Virus record (IMG/VR): IMGVR_UViG_3300005613_000223 | Span: 1 to 34,644 of that record | Origin: a virus | Lineage: Duplodnaviria > Caudoviricetes | DNA length: 34,644 nt | Strand: one strand, 5' to 3' | In this document: positions 20,819 to 32,181 of the stretch, in pieces | Layout of the letters: every line of letters begins with the position of its first letter | Numbering within the stretch: position 1 is the first letter of the stretch | Program-made: the position numbers and the translations under genes | Notes under the pieces: model-generated | Databases searched by the model: none | What the model was told of the DNA's origin: nothing | What the model saw: only the letters and a program-made list of their open reading frames with translations

Positions 20819-21631
20819 CTATGGGTATAGATTCAGCTTTACTAAAGCTGCATCCGCTCCTGCAGTTGTGCAATCAACTAACCCATCCCCTATCCTTGGT
20901 AATGTTCCATCACTAGCATCTGCTTGACCTGCGGTTGTACTAAGCATAAGCTGTAGTCCTCCACATGCTTCGTGTCCGGTGTCAACCTGAATCATACTTG
21001 GCCCCCATGTCTGAAACCATCCAAAGGAACTAGCTGCGATTTCAACTAAAGGTACCCCTCCCGGTTGTTCGTCGACAGTCGAATCACAAGGTCTCATCTT
21101 CTTCCATGGGTTCATCATCAAAGATATTCCGGTTGTAGAGTCAGTTGTTGCTGTAACAATCGGGTCATATAACTCGATTGCGACAATATCACTTGCCATT
21201 ACTGAATTTCTTTTGATTTTGTAAATCTGGTGATAATCCACACTCGCGCTATCAGTCAGAACTACATATCCATCTACCAGTAAGTTCTTCGTGACATTGT
21301 CAAGTCTATCTGCGTGTGTAACCGCTAACCACGTATCACCAACTGCTAAAGCAGCGGTAATTGCTGGTTGGTCAGTGAAAGCTGTTCCTGCCGCTAATGC
21401 GCAACAATTCCCATCTTCCAATAAACCACCCGAACCACCTACCAACGATTGGTCGGGTCCGCAAATCTCTGCTGGCGAACAACTTGCTACAGCCTCACCG
21501 TAGTAAAATGTTCTTTCTCCAATCTTAAGCCTCGTACCAATACGGTGCAGTTGAGTGGTACTTGCCTCATAGATTGACTGTGCGGGAGTATTACTCCCTA
21601 TGTCACTACCCCATCTATTTGGTGCACTCAT
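20819..21631 (-). CDS. Putative capsid decoration/cement protein, paralog 2
   Basis: QSIYEASTTQLHRIGTRL...FYYGEA and FGWFQTWGP motifs. Downstream of the capsid gene. Confidence 0.65.
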   Translation of the reverse strand: MSAPNRWGSDIGSNTPAQSIYEASTTQLHRIGTRLKIGERTFYYGEAVASCSPAEICGPDQSLVGGSGGLLEDGNCCALAAGTAFTDQPAITAALAVGDTWLAVTHADRLDNVTKNLLVDGYVVLTDSASVDYHQIYKIKRNSVMASDIVAIELYDPIVTATTDSTTGISLMMNPWKKMRPCDSTVDEQPGGVPLVEIAASSFGWFQTWGPSMIQVDTGHEACGGLQLMLSTTAGQADASDGTLPRIGDGLVDCTTAGADAALVKLNLYP

Positions 21632-21655: not shown

Positions 21656-22465
21656 TTACGGATAAATCTGTAAACAAACTAGACCTGCGTCCGCATCGTA
21701 ACTTGTTACGTCAACGAGACCATTTCCAATGTGTGGCAAAGTTCCATCACTCGCCACTGCCTGTCCTGCTGTGTCATCCAACATAAGTTGAAGTCCGCCC
21801 ATTGCTGCTGCATCAGCTATCTGAATCATGCAAGGACCCCAAGTTTGAAACCAACCAAACGAGTTGGCTGCAATCTCTACAAGAGGAACTCCACCTAGTT
21901 GTTCATCAACAGTTATGTCGCAAGGTCTCATCTCTTTAAATGGGTTCATCATTAGTGCTACACCAGTTGTTGCATCTACTGTTACCGTAGTGGTCGGGTC
22001 GTACAACTCAATCGCTACGATGTCAGAAGCCATTGCTGAATTTCTTTTGATTTTGTGGATTTGATGATAGTCAGCGTCTGCTGAGTCTGTCAGTAGCACA
22101 TACCCGTCTTGAAGCATGTTCTTGGTCACGTTATCCAGCATATCTCCGTGAGTAACCGCTAACCACGTTGAGCCTGCCGCTATTGCTGCTGTGATTGCTG
22201 GCTGGTCTGGGAAAGCGGTACCGGCTGCCAAAGCACAGCAAGAACCATCAGGGAGTAATCCCATTTTGCTTCCAAGTAATGAACCATCTGGCCCGCAAAT
22301 CTCTGCTGGCGAACAACTTCCTGCCGCCTCACCATAGTAGAACACCCTTTCTCCAATTTGTAGGCGTGTTCCAATCCTGTGTAACTGTGTTGTGCTTGCT
22401 TCGTAAATTGATTGAGCTGGGGTTTTTGTACCTACATCTCCACCCCATCTTTTAGGTATACTCAT
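21656..22465 (-). CDS. Putative capsid decoration/cement protein, paralog 1
   Basis: Same motifs, colinear with 20819..21631. Immediately follows the capsid gene. Confidence 0.65.
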   Translation of the reverse strand: MSIPKRWGGDVGTKTPAQSIYEASTTQLHRIGTRLQIGERVFYYGEAAGSCSPAEICGPDGSLLGSKMGLLPDGSCCALAAGTAFPDQPAITAAIAAGSTWLAVTHGDMLDNVTKNMLQDGYVLLTDSADADYHQIHKIKRNSAMASDIVAIELYDPTTTVTVDATTGVALMMNPFKEMRPCDITVDEQLGGVPLVEIAANSFGWFQTWGPCMIQIADAAAMGGLQLMLDDTAGQAVASDGTLPHIGNGLVDVTSYDADAGLVCLQIYP

Positions 22466-22549: not shown

Positions 22550-25467
22550 TTATTCAGCTATGTCGAACAATACCCCTTGTTTTCTCGCATTGTCCATACA
22601 CAAATTACCAACTGTCATGCTATGTGCCACAACATCTCGCGGTTGGTTCACAATCGGCAGCCACTCACCTAATGAGAAATTCTCAATAGGGTCAGCTACA
22701 AACGACATGTGATTTGTGTTTAAGAGATACAGTGAACCAGAGGGACAAGAAGGTGACCAAGTCATTGGTCTTCCCTTGTATGCTAATTCACCATAGCCCA
22801 TATCTGCGATTTTCTTGTCGCTAATCATTATTCTTGAAATTTCTACAAGTTCGCTCTCATAGAACTCATGAACGTCTTGAGCACATACGATTATGTCTGG
22901 GAATCTTGTAACTCCCTTTCCATACTTTCCGCACTCATTAAATGCTATGTTCATTCTCTTTCTAAGATAAATGGACGCAGCATAAGAGCTCATGTCAAAG
23001 TAGTAGTTCCTCCACCAACTATCAATTATGTTAATCTTACAGTTTTGCTTCCTGTAAGTTCAGACTATCACTTGCCTCAACTTGAGGCGTAGCTTGATTA
23101 GTCGTTACTGCTGCACTGGGAATATGCACTTTTTTTAATTCCTTCATCTTTAAATAAAAGGTTTCATATCTATCAAGAAGATACTGTGGAGAAGGTTGAT
23201 ATCTTCCATTTTTACGCTGTTGAGTTTCTCTATTTTCTTGAAATCTTATTCCAAGTTCTGCTTGTTCTTTCTTCCCTTTTAAAAATGGCAATATCTCTTT
23301 TAGAAACTTTTTAGCTTTTTCTCTGCGTATCTCCCAACGATAAACTGGCAAAGAACCTAACCCATATTGCTGTGATACATAAACCCAACCTCCAAAAGTC
23401 CCATACATAAAATCTATAGAGCCTCCATCAGTCATATTTATGTTTATTTGGAGAGAGTATTCAGCATTTCTACTTCCATTAGGGTGTTTCACTTTTTTTA
23501 TCTGAATACACCCTTCTCCATCCATTAACCCTGCTGCATATCCTCTTTGCCATGTTTTTCTACCTTTCATTGCAACTCCCATGCTTGCAAGGGGTAGCCA
23601 TTACAGGTTTTCCCCTTATTAAAGCTACTTTTAGCATCGCTATTGTTGGTAGTTAACGATGCCCTGTTAATACTTCCTATGGTTCCAGTTGCAGGTGCTT
23701 CAGCTACGAGATTTAACAACCCGTTAATCTCTTGACTGTTGTCTGCGGTTCCGTCATTAAAGAGTGAACTCTCAAGTTGGTCGGTCAAACTTGCCTGAAG
23801 TGTGTCAATATCGCTATTGACTTTATTTATTAACGCGGCCTTTCCTCTATTCTTTTGAAAATCTGCGAAGTATCGGATTATATGACCGGTTAAATATCTC
23901 CACTCAAAGTGAGCGACTGTCAATGGGTCAGTGTCTTGTAATGTAACAGAACCACCCTTACCAATGTACTGAACTGATTCATTCTTTGCGTAACGTAAAG
24001 GTATTTCGATTTTCCTTCCGCCAGTTTGGTTACCAATCTTTCCCTTCTTTTTAAGAAGATACCAGACACTATACCTACACCTTTGCTATCGATGTAGAGT
24101 GGACTGTCGCATACTTATCTTTTAACTTACTAGCTAAAATGATAAGTTCCTTTCGCTCAGTGCTCTGCAGCTGCACGGCTTCCTCAGAATCCCAACTTCT
24201 TTTATTTAAGCTTTTCATCTGAGTATGGAAAGATTTCCTTAAAGATTTGGTTTCTTCAGACAATTTATGTTCATTATTAACCGTATCTCTAAATGCTATA
24301 GCTAATTCAGCTTGCTCTTTTTTTACAATAAGATAAGGCATACATTCCTTAAGAAGTTCTGTTGATTTATCATCGTAGTGATACCATTCCCATTTAGTCT
24401 TATAGCCTTCCTTAGTTTTTCTGCGGTATATATACCCACCAAATTTGGATTTTAGCCATTTGATTAATCTCAAATCAGTGTTTACAACATATACACGCAT
24501 TCTGTAGCAATCTCTTGTAGGTCCAGAATAATTAATATTTATTCCTCCTTCACCATCTAAGATACCTGCAAGATAACTATATGCATATCTATCCACGCCT
24601 GCTTGCTGAGGATTACCCCATTCACTCATTAGAGGGCTCCCCCGTTAATCAGAAAGGATTTAGACACCGCTCTGCGCTGTGCTAACGGTGTGGCTTCAAA
24701 GATGTTGTCGATAACCTTTTTCCTACGCAAATACCAAGTCGATTTTGTTACCGTTCAGTCGTCTCTACTGAACTTCTACACATTCCTGTGTAGTCCGGGT
24801 CATATCTTCCCTGTCGGGAGGAGCGCTTATATCCGTTATTTCAGGATTGACCTCCACACCTTCTGCATCAGACTTTTTAGTAAGTGCAGCTTGGCTCGGT
24901 ATTATCCGTTCTGGATTTCCACCGAATTCACCCCTTTTTGTAGCAGGCTGATGAGTTTGCAGACTTTTAAATTCTTCATAAATAGCTTTCCGCCACTCGC
25001 GTTGTTCATCAGTAAGTTTGTGGGTTGATTTACTTTGCATATTTTTTCCCATATGATACATAAGCTCACACCTTCTTCTCTTAGTAATCGTGTAAGGGTA
25101 AATATGCTCGATTAAATCTATTACATCTTTATGAGATGTAACATTCCACAACCAATAAACAGAATCTTTTGGCTGATGTTTGGAATAGGCTTTCTGTTCA
25201 TAAACATGCCCAACTCCAGTATGTTCATATAGCCAATCAATGATTTCTTTTTCCTTACAAGTGACTTTAGCTCCAATTCTGTAACTATCAGGGGTATTGG
25301 TCTGTTTTGTCATATAAAGGCAGCCATCTGCATCGATGGAACCTGCGATATATGCAGCCTCAACATCTGATAGTAATTTTAATCTGCGAAGTATCATCCT
25401 ACTCCACCTTCTTGTTTAAAGTGGTGTACATTGTGTTTAGACTTTCTGTGTTAGTATTTACTGCCAT
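22550..25467 (-). CDS. Major capsid protein, spliced: exons 25420-25467, 24685-24739, 23656-24066, 22550-23022 (987 nt, 328 aa)
   Basis: Joined exons give one continuous frame: MAVNTNTESLNTMYTT|TWYLRRKKVIDNIFEATPF(split codon)WYLLKKKG...GGRKIEIPLRY...INRASY(split codon)SWWRNYYFD...PDIIVC...GNLCMDNARKQGVL. Follows the scaffold gene. Confidence 0.9.
23023..23655 (-). mobile_element. Group I intron 3 in the capsid gene (633 nt)
   Basis: P1 GCAUCGU/GCGAUGC with U-G splice site and terminal G. P3 GUAGCUU/AAGCUAC. P7 GACUA/UAGUC. Confidence 0.9.
23037..23582 (-). CDS. Intron-encoded LAGLIDADG homing endonuclease (probable start ATG 23570)
   Basis: YAAGLMDGEGCI, FGGWV and LPFLKGKKEQAELGI. Confidence 0.9.
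   Translation of the reverse strand: MGVAMKGRKTWQRGYAAGLMDGEGCIQIKKVKHPNGSRNAEYSLQININMTDGGSIDFMYGTFGGWVYVSQQYGLGSLPVYRWEIRREKAKKFLKEILPFLKGKKEQAELGIRFQENRETQQRKNGRYQPSPQYLLDRYETFYLKMKELKKVHIPSAAVTTNQATPQVEASDSLNLQEAKL
24067..24684 (-). mobile_element. Group I intron 2 in the capsid gene (618 nt)
   Basis: P1 ACACCGU/GCGGUGU with U-G splice site and terminal G. P3 UCCUUUC/GAAAGGA. S element GCGACAGUCC. Confidence 0.9.
24075..24629 (-). CDS. Intron-encoded LAGLIDADG homing endonuclease
   Basis: YLAGILDGEGGI, KFGGYI and PYLIVKKEQAELAI. Confidence 0.9.
   Translation of the reverse strand: MSEWGNPQQAGVDRYAYSYLAGILDGEGGININYSGPTRDCYRMRVYVVNTDLRLIKWLKSKFGGYIYRRKTKEGYKTKWEWYHYDDKSTELLKECMPYLIVKKEQAELAIAFRDTVNNEHKLSEETKSLRKSFHTQMKSLNKRSWDSEEAVQLQSTERKELIILASKLKDKYATVHSTSIAKV
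24740..25419 (-). mobile_element. Group I intron 1 in the capsid gene (680 nt)
   Basis: 5' exon ends in U paired to G in P1 (CCACU/GGUGG) and the intron ends in G. P/Q elements GAAUUCGGUGGAAA...AAUACCGAGCCAAGC. P7 GGUCA/UGACC. Confidence 0.9.
24765..25397 (-). CDS. Intron-encoded LAGLIDADG homing endonuclease
   Basis: AAYIAGSIDADGC motif, GVGHVY and IYPYTITKR. Confidence 0.9.
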   Translation of the reverse strand: MILRRLKLLSDVEAAYIAGSIDADGCLYMTKQTNTPDSYRIGAKVTCKEKEIIDWLYEHTGVGHVYEQKAYSKHQPKDSVYWLWNVTSHKDVIDLIEHIYPYTITKRRRCELMYHMGKNMQSKSTHKLTDEQREWRKAIYEEFKSLQTHQPATKRGEFGGNPERIIPSQAALTKKSDAEGVEVNPEITDISAPPDREDMTRTTQECVEVQ

Positions 25468-29892: not shown

Positions 29893-32181
29893 CTATGAAT
29901 ATCGTTTGTTCTGAACATCAAAAGGATATAACTGTTTGCCCCTGTGTAGTTTCTGAACACTATCCCTTATCTGTTGTAGTCCAAACACATTGTATTTCGC
30001 TTCCTTTTTCTTTCCTTCAAATCTCTCATACTCGCTTGGGATATATCTTTCTATCTGCCAGGAAAGGGCATCAATGATGTCGTCATGTTTACCCATGGGG
30101 AAGGTATAAAGTTCTTCTTCAAGTTCTCTCATACCTTTCTTTAAGAAAATTACCCCGTTCTCAAACAACGGTGATAACCTGTTTTTAATCCTTCCTTCTT
30201 TAGCGATTGCCTTCGCTTTCACACAGTCAATGTTGTAGTATTCGTTTCTCCTCGCCATACACTCACGAAAACCTGCCTCTAGGTGAGCATATCTATTAGT
30301 TTCTATTCGTATCTTTACCGCCCCGTCCAGCTTCGCGACATCCATTCCTTCGTCTATAATCCCTTTATCGCTTAACCTCTTTCGTCTATACCGTCTGACG
30401 AAAACCCCTTTCTTCGTATGCTTGCAGGAAACAATGGCCGTGTAATCTTGGCGCGCCTTTCCTGTCGGCGGGTCCGCCGGGTCGATTGTAACGACGGTCT
30501 CCCCGTCTTGAGGTAACTCATCTTCTTCGTAATATCGCGTCCAGTCGGGGTTAAACGCCATAAACTCTTTGGCAAGCGGCTGGTTGAGGTAGAGAGAAGA
30601 GTTTTTACTCGCATAACCCCAGCATACATAATTCCCACTTTCTGTTTGTAACCAAAAGACTTCTTCATCTTTGTCATATTCGAATTTTTTAACCTTATCT
30701 CTTTCCTTGCAAAATCTAGCTTGGTAAAGATGTTTGATTAAATTCTTTTTATCAGCAATATAAGCCTGATTTAAAAATCTTCTTCTGTCTTCCCATTTAC
30801 AGCCAAAAACAATATCATAGTTTCCTTTATCACTCTTTTTTTCGTGCGAATTGTATTCAAAACCTAATTCTTCTAAAGCATTTATGATTCCTTCATAGAT
30901 TTCAGGATGAACCCTTTTGCTTTGAGATAATGTTATATGTTTATAACAATGCCCTTCTCCGTCATAAATACCGCCAAGCCAATCCACCACCCGTTGCTTT
31001 TTCTTATCTAAAGAAGGAATATATGGGTCACAAACATAATGCAAAGTCAATGGATACCTTTTAGAACTTTCAATAGTCCTGTAGTCGGGATGGTGTCCGT
31101 CATTTCGCCTGTTTATATTAGCCAGCCATTTATGCTCTTTTGTGCATCTGATTACTCTGCCCGACTCCATATAGACTTTATAAACTGGAGCTATCAAAGA
31201 ACCCTTTGCTATAACCTTAGAAGGAACTAATTTTGTATTTTTTCCGCTATATTTTTTTCGTAAATCAAAACCTAATACTTCATCACCGACATTTACATCT
31301 TTAATCCTTTTTGCTGTAAAATCCGCCATAGTAATTGGCGCTTCAGCAGGATTACAAAACATATACTCCCCCATAGCCTTTTTAATATTCTCAAGCCTTG
31401 CGAGAGAAAAACGCTTATACCTCGGTGAACCATCTTCCTTAAAACACGGTTTATCGTATTCGTGAAAGTTTTCATTTTCTTTTACATAGTTGATTAGGTC
31501 ATACGAAGCCCAGCGCGTGCCCACCACAATCCGATAATCCTTTTCGTCAATGAGCAGCGGCATTGTAAGTCTATGAAAACCTACTGCCTTTTCTATATCC
31601 TCTTTGGAAGGCATCGCCTCCTCTCCTGTCAGTTCATCCTTCTTGGGTGCAACTGTATCGTCTTCAATAATGAGGTTGAAATGTCGCCTGATAATATTGC
31701 TTCCAACACCTGCGGCTTCGAATGTACCTTCTGGATAATCTTCTGGCCGTTTGAGTGTTGCACAAGTGTCAGACCATCTAACTTTGGAGAAATTAGGTAC
31801 CCTATCAGGAAAAAGGAGTTGGTACTCCGAATTATTCTCAACTATCCCCCTTATATAACGTACTGTTTTACAGGCATTCGGTGTTGTATTGGATGTTACC
31901 AATATCCTTATTCCCGGGTTCCTTGTCGCTTCCCATAAACAATACAAAGAAATAAACGTCGTCTTTAAAAACGTCCTCGGTAAAACTATTAACTTATCTC
32001 CGTCCTGCCCTTCGTAATCACCTATCCCCTGGATAAACTTACACAGGTCAGTATGAAACTCGCCATCATAATAGGCGGGGTCTAGGAATGTTTGGGCAAA
32101 CACCGAGAAATCACTCAGTAATGCTTCCCTGCCCCACGCTATCAGCTGTGGCGTCGATAATGTCTCTATGCCCTCTGGCAT
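29893..32181 (-). CDS. terL: Terminase large subunit (intein-containing)
   Basis: LPRTFLKTT Walker A-like, LIIEDD Walker B, VVGTRW coupling motif, and nuclease motifs TIDPA and FPMGKHDDIIDALS. Confidence 0.92.
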   Translation of the reverse strand: MPEGIETLSTPQLIAWGREALLSDFSVFAQTFLDPAYYDGEFHTDLCKFIQGIGDYEGQDGDKLIVLPRTFLKTTFISLYCLWEATRNPGIRILVTSNTTPNACKTVRYIRGIVENNSEYQLLFPDRVPNFSKVRWSDTCATLKRPEDYPEGTFEAAGVGSNIIRRHFNLIIEDDTVAPKKDELTGEEAMPSKEDIEKAVGFHRLTMPLLIDEKDYRIVVGTRWASYDLINYVKENENFHEYDKPCFKEDGSPRYKRFSLARLENIKKAMGEYMFCNPAEAPITMADFTAKRIKDVNVGDEVLGFDLRKKYSGKNTKLVPSKVIAKGSLIAPVYKVYMESGRVIRCTKEHKWLANINRRNDGHHPDYRTIESSKRYPLTLHYVCDPYIPSLDKKKQRVVDWLGGIYDGEGHCYKHITLSQSKRVHPEIYEGIINALEELGFEYNSHEKKSDKGNYDIVFGCKWEDRRRFLNQAYIADKKNLIKHLYQARFCKERDKVKKFEYDKDEEVFWLQTESGNYVCWGYASKNSSLYLNQPLAKEFMAFNPDWTRYYEEDELPQDGETVVTIDPADPPTGKARQDYTAIVSCKHTKKGVFVRRYRRKRLSDKGIIDEGMDVAKLDGAVKIRIETNRYAHLEAGFRECMARRNEYYNIDCVKAKAIAKEGRIKNRLSPLFENGVIFLKKGMRELEEELYTFPMGKHDDIIDALSWQIERYIPSEYERFEGKKKEAKYNVFGLQQIRDSVQKLHRGKQLYPFDVQNKRYS
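30601..31356 (-). mobile_element. Intein in TerL (252 aa) with LAGLIDADG-type motif
   Basis: Block A CNPAEAPITMAD, IKDVNVGDEV, block B IRCTKEHKW, WLGGIYDGEG, block F VFWLQTESGNY and C-terminal SKN followed by Ser. Removal restores MGEYMF|SSLYLNQP. Confidence 0.9.

Follow-up and report, generated by a model that had tools for sequence, protein, structure and literature searches.

A split capsid gene and its intron-encoded endonucleases

The window, i.e. the whole stretch of 34,644 nt analysed here, corresponds to a 34.6-kb virus record with a completeness of 47%. Its minus strand carries the genes of a terminase with an intein-like insert, of the portal and of other virion proteins, and likely that of a scaffold protein, which was called from its position. 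On the same strand, a major capsid gene is split into four exons by three group I introns (Table 1). The joined exons yielded one 328-aa frame with a single stop, and the spliced protein was colinear with intronless homologs, with a best identity of 87-88% (52 homologs). Junctions 1, 2 and 3 were gap-free in 46, 50 and 52 of the 52 aligned homologs, respectively. Intronless alleles of the gene exist among relatives, and a PHROG search with the intronless homologs hit entry 9953 (major head protein; E-value 1e-51).

Table 1. Features of the capsid locus (positions in the window; helices given as paired strands)
Feature	Position	Strand	Remarks
Capsid exon 1	25420..25467	-	16 codons; from splice-restored frame and homolog alignment
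Intron 1	24740..25419	-	680 nt, group I; same-site homolog L059
Intron 1 predicted helices	P1 25424-25420/25410-25404; P3 24935-24929/24825-24819; P4 24926-24920/24901-24895; P7 24852-24848/24802-24798	-	
Junction 1	25395..25410	-	SD-like AAGGTGGAG overlapping P1 guide strand; TAG 25401-25399; 1-nt gap; ATG 25397
Endonuclease 1	24765..25397	-	210 aa, with one LAGLIDADG-like motif; ends 25 nt short of 3' splice site
Capsid exon 2	24685..24739	-	55 nt; from splice-restored frame and homolog alignment
Intron 2	24067..24684	-	618 nt, group I; endonuclease-less homolog L035
Intron 2 predicted helices	P1 24691-24684/24671-24664; P3 24658-24652/24154-24148; P4 24643-24639/24612-24608; P7 24165-24158/24106-24101	-	
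Junction 2	24627..24643	-	SD-like GGGGGAG in P4 and J4/5; TAATG overlap in P5 loop; TAA 24631-24629, ATG 24629
Endonuclease 2	24075..24629	-	184 aa; ends 8 nt short of 3' splice site
Capsid exon 3	23656..24066	-	411 nt; from splice-restored frame and homolog alignment
Intron 3	23023..23655	-	633 nt, group I
Intron 3 predicted helices	P1 23663-23654/23642-23633; P3 23628-23622/23095-23089; P4 23618-23612/23594-23588; P7 23105-23099/23067-23062	-	
Intron 3 P6a partner strand	23121-23113	-	
Junction 3	23567..23580	-	SD-like GGGAG in P6a helix; ATGA overlap; TGA 23569-23567, ATG 23570
Endonuclease 3	23037..23570	-	177 aa, I-CreI-like single-motif LAGLIDADG; ends 14 nt short of 3' splice site
Capsid exon 4	22550..23022	-	from splice-restored frame and homolog alignment

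Each intron has an exon U at its 5' boundary and a terminal G at its 3' end. The exon U pairs with a G in P1 in all three cases, with the junctions being backed by the intronless homologs. The core helices were found as complementary strands, partly read by eye. When examined for P3, P4, P6, P7 and the G-binding site, introns 1 and 3 were found to carry the complementary strands; in intron 2, compared with the homologous intron of L035, P7 contains one additional C (24162) and P4 holds a C-A mismatch, and both irregularities recur in L052, a contig near-identical to the window. No match to the Rfam intron model (RF00028) was obtained in the window, where the intron cores are split by ORFs. Among ORF-less relatives, two of four loci matched Intron_gpI below the gathering score (L260, E 3.5e-5; L035, E 0.0099). 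All three introns would be self-splicing.

The three endonuclease ORFs extend through the 3' ribozyme core, and that of intron 1 begins directly past P1. Endonuclease 3 matched PF00961 above the cut-off and endonuclease 2 below it (E 0.0012), while endonuclease 1 had no Pfam match. All three matched profile A2, which matches I-CreI, I-MsoI and I-CvuI, and by family match they would all be single-motif LAGLIDADG homing endonucleases; PHROG 5046 labels the family HNH, in conflict with the LAGLIDADG matches. Endonuclease 1 is 63% identical to the ORF product of L059. At the start of endonuclease 3, the columns M-K-G-R-K-T-W are at least 90% conserved in a 20-row alignment. The start and N-terminus of endonuclease 2 are common to P0077, and the same residues also encode the ribozyme core. 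Scans of viral contigs with endonucleases 1 and 2 as queries gave no matches, as did a scan with a 5'-core DNA pattern. An N-terminal pattern hit three loci, of which L203 repeats L086 and the two others do not encode the enzyme.

Capsid-frame stops at the endonuclease start codons

In the unspliced message, the exon frame reads 6, 18 and 29 codons into introns 1, 2 and 3, respectively, before stopping. The earlier note had placed the corresponding stops (TAG, TAA and TGA) next to or overlapping the endonuclease ATGs, and every coordinate proved correct to the base. The gaps between stop and ATG are +1, -1 and -4 nt, with all three pairs falling within a spacing of about -4 to +2 nt. In introns 2 and 3 the non-exon frames stop within 0-8 codons, compared to 18 and 29 codons in the exon frame.

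To estimate the likelihood of such an arrangement, the sequence from the 5' splice site to the ATG was shuffled, and stops falling within -4 to +2 nt of the ATG were counted. The probabilities for introns 1, 2 and 3 were 0.14, 0.14 and 0.05 with the frame randomised (joint 9.7e-4) and 0.055, 0.38 and 0.115 with the frame fixed (joint 2.4e-3). All of these are post hoc values, as it was the pattern that led to the choice of the window. The ATG of intron 1 lies 22 nt from the splice site, and two of the three frames stop there. This case carries little weight because the second frame also stops, at -4, and its start lies near the exon stop mostly by geometry. The assertion that three of three is unlikely to be chance stood in its joint form (~0.001-0.002, post hoc), but with little contributed by intron 1. 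As far as sequence can tell, the stop-start pattern is real and non-random, with two good cases (introns 2 and 3) and a weak one (intron 1).

Each endonuclease SD lies inside a predicted ribozyme helix, namely the P1 guide strand, P4 and P6a in introns 1, 2 and 3, respectively. Scored against an anti-SD motif, their strengths were -9.5, -8.6 and -6.8 kcal/mol. The median of 27 phage genes of the window was -10.2 kcal/mol; the endonuclease SDs are of ordinary strength, so independent initiation would be possible. The P6a partner of the intron 3 SD lies 444 nt downstream (~430-450 nt across intron 3, L086 and L002), and due to this distance the SD would be free on the nascent RNA. The SD-bearing P6a duplex has a predicted energy of -16 to -17 kcal/mol in these three introns, although its sequence differs from one to the next. 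No support was obtained for weaker SDs at coupled enzymes (medians -8.35 vs. -4.5, P=0.21). An excess of sigma-70-like promoters was not found (5 vs. 9.5 expected) in a scan that a phage late promoter would escape.

Stop-start overlap in related introns

We have surveyed two sets of related introns. The first was built from loci retrieved with the capsid and endonuclease 3, of which 30 rows passed a P7 filter. Two rows of the window and two of L052 were left out, as were L114 (broken ORF) and L183 (apparently an rRNA intron); L059 and L139 were added by hand (n=26). The translations served to assign splice sites and frames manually, with the automatic picks, mostly wrong, being only a guide. 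In this protein-selected set, whose related rows are not independent, 5 introns were coupled, i.e. had the exon stop within -4 to +2 nt of the ATG (L002, L086 and L125 at -1, L092 at -4 and L134 at +2), against 1.1 expected (P=0.003). Near cases were L118 (-14), L138 (+15) and L059 (+15), with the remaining introns being 26-129 nt away. For ATGs at least 50 nt deep, the count was 5 of 24 vs. 0.75 expected, and 1 of 48 for the non-exon frames.

The second set came from a P7-motif scan that returned 117 loci with 94 distinct matches, including 34 non-duplicate LAGLIDADG introns with enough flank. L224 and L270, which have no ATG, and introns with other or unclear ORFs were left out (n=32). Frames were judged by eye, with the null set at a fixed 80 nt; the stop offsets of L222 and L275 were entered a few bases off, their translations showing gaps near 100 nt. 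None of the 32 introns of this ribozyme-motif set was coupled, and the combined figure became 5 of 58 vs. 2.07 expected (P=0.051). Most relatives would thus express their enzyme without overlap. In known phage introns the exon frame stops 268 nt (SPO1), 129 nt (T4 td), 167 nt (T4 nrdB) and 134 nt (LL-H) before the ORF, and the SPO1 enzyme I-HmuI was accordingly ruled out as a coupled example. The overlap is hence patchy in its occurrence and no rule of the family. Read-through alone is not special either, since in some endonuclease-less introns (L212, L214 and L227) the exon frame, read by eye, also runs ~20 codons inwards.

The overlap was most marked in the introns nearest to introns 2 and 3 by relationship. 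L086, with an intron at the site of intron 3, has TAATG instead of ATGA, despite 25 of 85 aligned positions being different; by substitution alone, indels not counted, the chance of retaining an overlap was 0.18. In L002, with an intron at a neighbouring site in a different phase, a spacer 5 nt shorter brings the stop again onto the ATG (TAATG). The endonuclease-less site-2 intron of L035 keeps TAATG and has a frame that is stop-free for 49 codons, to within a few nt of the 3' splice site. It would most simply represent an in-frame deletion relic, and its retention of the overlap relative to intron 2 is unremarkable (chance 0.69). At the site of intron 1, the exon stop of L059 lies 15 nt before the ATG. 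In the endonuclease tree, coupled cases appeared in several places, mostly with weak support. The conservation of the overlap, which the earlier note had wished to see surveyed, was thus found in the nearest relatives of introns 2 (L035) and 3 (L086, L002), but not for intron 1 nor in 53 of the 58 introns, so that the note's own ground for refutation, homologous introns lacking such an overlap, applies in part.

Probable coupling on the unspliced message and its alternatives

The restored capsid frame, the positions of its stops, the SDs, the helices that contain them and the conservation in close relatives are observed. They suggest that the endonucleases of introns 2 and 3 are probably, though by no means certainly, translationally coupled to the exon frame on the unspliced message. 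On unspliced capsid mRNA, exon ribosomes would traverse the predicted ribozyme's 5' half and melt the helix hiding the endonuclease SD. As the capsid frame ends on the endonuclease ATG, they would likely terminate and re-initiate there. Folding and splicing would remove the stop and the access to the SD, and a folded or excised intron would silence its own SD. The main source of enzyme would be precursor message of a late gene with high expression that still holds the intron, and no enzyme would be made once the message is spliced. In intron 1, exon ribosomes would probably still open the SD by unwinding P1.

For 13 of the 14 gene pairs tested, overlaps of -1/-4 were reported to couple translation strictly (PMC6728339), the efficiency of termination-reinitiation to drop steeply with distance (PMC10666635), and melting of an SD-hiding helix is a companion model (PMC12548453). 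Such pairs share with the window the geometry, the upstream SD and the structure-melting model, but they are described for neighbouring genes, and the words "intron" and "endonuclease" do not occur in the available text of PMC12548453. Translation across the 5' splice site has been reported to hinder splicing (cited in PMC3073962), which counts against coupling. The re-initiation in retained introns put forward by the earlier note was thus supported for introns 2 and 3, with their deep read-through, -1/-4 geometry and relatives keeping the overlap, but weakly for intron 1, given the 15-nt gap of L059. The competition it proposed between translation and ribozyme folding found support of a structural kind, since each SD lies in a predicted ribozyme helix.

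Alternatively, translation of each endonuclease could start independently at its own SD, on intron RNA that is nascent, misfolded or excised, or on RNA made from an internal phage promoter; the overlaps would then be an inherited accident of compact sequence. The ordinary strength of the SDs, the rarity of the overlap among relatives with its borderline combined enrichment, the lack of conservation at intron 1 and the own late promoters of T4 introns (PMC2988022) are compatible with this. It fits poorly with the joint chance in the window, with L086 and L002 keeping the overlap with different stop codons and a phase-adjusted spacer, and, given the weak support, less so with the scatter of coupled cases over the endonuclease tree; we regard it as rather unlikely. 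A further reading is that ribosome coverage is the selected function, protecting the late operon from Rho polarity or decay, with endonuclease coupling being secondary. Exon frame and ORF together leave only 26, 8 and 14 nt of introns 1, 2 and 3 untranslated, L035 keeps its overlap and open frame without an endonuclease, and indels in the window, P0077 and L035 leave the C-terminal frame intact. However, L035 is most simply a relic, most relatives leave ~100 nt untranslated at the intron's 5' end and have widely varying ORF ends, and the extension of ORFs into cores can be explained neutrally, by "core creep" (PMC3073962). We consider this reading very improbable. Synthesis of the enzymes as fusions to a capsid exon, by frameshifting or read-through, is hardly credible. 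The 5' splice site of intron 1 does hold an in-phase slippery T TTA AAC, yet a -1 shift there ends at a TGA inside ATGA and never enters the endonuclease frame. Intron 2 has no slippery site, that of intron 3 is out of phase, and upstream of the ATGs no more than 5-10 codons of the endonuclease frames are open; frameshift fusion was rejected on these grounds.

The earlier note went further and saw a splicing-ordered cascade, each enzyme coming only from an intermediate that has lost the upstream introns and still carries its own. Past endonucleases 1 and 2, the nearest capsid-frame restart is a TTG located 34 nt downstream, for which no SD is evident. With no usable restart, a retained upstream intron would cut off exon ribosomes before the next exon, and endonucleases 2 and 3 would for this reason depend partly on upstream splicing. 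As an evolved regulatory program, however, the cascade found no support in the comparison and is improbable. The overlap also occurs in L086 and L002, where the compared DNA displays a single endonuclease intron at the capsid gene, and the sites are filled independently, L059 having site 1 only and L035 site 1 plus the endonuclease-less site 2. Furthermore, the ordinary-strength SD at each ATG would permit leakage, and exon skipping, described for tandem group I introns with short exons (PMC10136302), would blur the order. Because single-intron relatives share the overlap, the ordering would be a by-product, likely a side effect of several mobile introns piling up.

Under the coupling that we favour for introns 2 and 3, the enzyme of a mobile element would be linked directly to that part of its host mRNA which is unspliced. 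The rule stated for bacterial group I introns is an immediate in-frame stop (PMC3073962, PMC3984707), which in reviews excludes ribosomes, the endonucleases being expressed separately. The arrangement in introns 2 and 3 and in several relatives is the opposite. Tentatively, and as a rather doubtful extension, a lineage of phage group I introns may have dropped the early stop and turned the 5' ribozyme half into a stop-free lane to the endonuclease start. The intron would then be a switch, either folding and splicing or being translated nearly end to end to give the enzyme, and with three such introns in one gene the endonuclease output would be ordered by splicing state. Cross-talk between exon translation and splicing has been named as an open question (PMC3073962), and the natural coupled and uncoupled relatives, together with the endonuclease-less relic, make it testable with simple reporters.

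Among the papers within reach of our literature search, none was found to report coupling between an exon stop and an intron ORF. In the available texts of PMC2988022, PMC3984707, PMC3073962, PMC11878797, PMC3428280, PMC3706429, PMC10136302 and PMC12548453, coupling is proposed only for the free-standing mobE. Three group I introns in one gene also occur in orf142 of phage Twort (PMC10136302, PMC3073962), and a capsid-gene intron with a LAGLIDADG-like ORF, on the opposite strand, in mycobacteriophage LittleE (PMC3706429), with no coupling reported for either in these texts. The T4 introns of td, nrdB and nrdD (I-TevI to I-TevIII) resemble those of the window in being phage group I introns with ORFs reaching into the 3' core and SDs hidden in RNA structure, and exon translation affects their splicing (PMC2988022, PMC3073962). 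However, the exon frame of td and nrdB ends close to the 5' splice site, and the T4 enzymes have their own promoters (PMC2988022, PMC3073962), whereas the exon frame continues as far as the ATG in introns 2 and 3. At T4 nrdA-mobE (UAAUGA), a homing endonuclease start overlaps the upstream stop as in the window, but mobE overlaps a normal gene end (PMC2988022), while the window stops exist only in the unspliced frame inside the ribozyme and vanish on splicing. The cyanophage Pf-WMP3 intron (I-PfoP3I) has its RBS in the P6b stem, recalling intron 3, but it begins with UAA, which prevents read-through, and its enzyme is HNH (PMC3428280). Organellar intron ORFs, as proposed here, give the enzyme from unspliced precursor under the control of exon translation; they do so as in-frame exon fusions followed by proteolysis (PMC3073962), whereas the window has separate out-of-frame ORFs with their own starts.

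Alternative hairpin in intron 1 and core departures in intron 2

A local hairpin can form as an alternative fold in intron 1 (z -1.98); it pairs the guide strand and Shine-Dalgarno sequence of the intron with the opening codons of the endonuclease. Its counterpart in L059, the same-site homolog of intron 1, appears weak.

Compared with L035, the endonuclease-less homolog of intron 2, the window intron 2 contains a C-A mismatch in P4, and its P7 has one additional C that adjoins the G-binding pair. Such departures would mean that the core is a variant one, that an intron within an essential gene is damaged, or that the assembly contains an error also present in the near-identical locus L052. 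The L035 intron retains the TAATG, and its entire core is spanned by an open frame of 49 codons.

Features of the window and related loci
Feature	Location	Strand
Intron 1 alternative hairpin	window 25432-25385	-
Intron 2 P7	window 24165-24158	-
Intron 2 P4 mismatch	window 24644	-
Site-2 intron of L035	125-331	
Endonuclease ORF of L107	~2488	
Capsid N-terminus copy and endonuclease arrangement of L206	~2428-2960	
Terminase large subunit	window 29893-32181	-
Tandem 270-aa gene	window 20819-21631	-
Tandem 270-aa gene	window 21656-22465	-

Layouts of the exon frame and endonuclease start in relatives

An ATG close after the exon stop opens a mini-ORF in L107 (~22 codons) and in L270 (~11 codons), with the mini-ORF stop overlapping the endonuclease start, which is TTG in L270. 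Both are possible relays between exon stop and endonuclease start. For L087 and L284, a frame other than that of the exon stays open for 43-47 codons up to the endonuclease ATG, with gaps of -4 and 0; this may be a lane left over as a relic of a site in another phase. In L216 the exon frame remains open across the whole ribozyme core, and that of L248 continues 35 nt beyond the endonuclease ATG.

Other window genes and capsid loci

The terminase large subunit gene has weak intein/Hint matches. The two tandem genes, highly similar to each other, follow the capsid gene, and neither has a Pfam match.

As implied by capsid alignment, the 3' splice sites of L090 and L091 seem to end in A or C, not G. 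In Stenotrophomonas phage StenR_269 (L206), the capsid N-terminus occurs as a short copy, followed by an annotated "intron homing endonuclease" and then by the full capsid gene.
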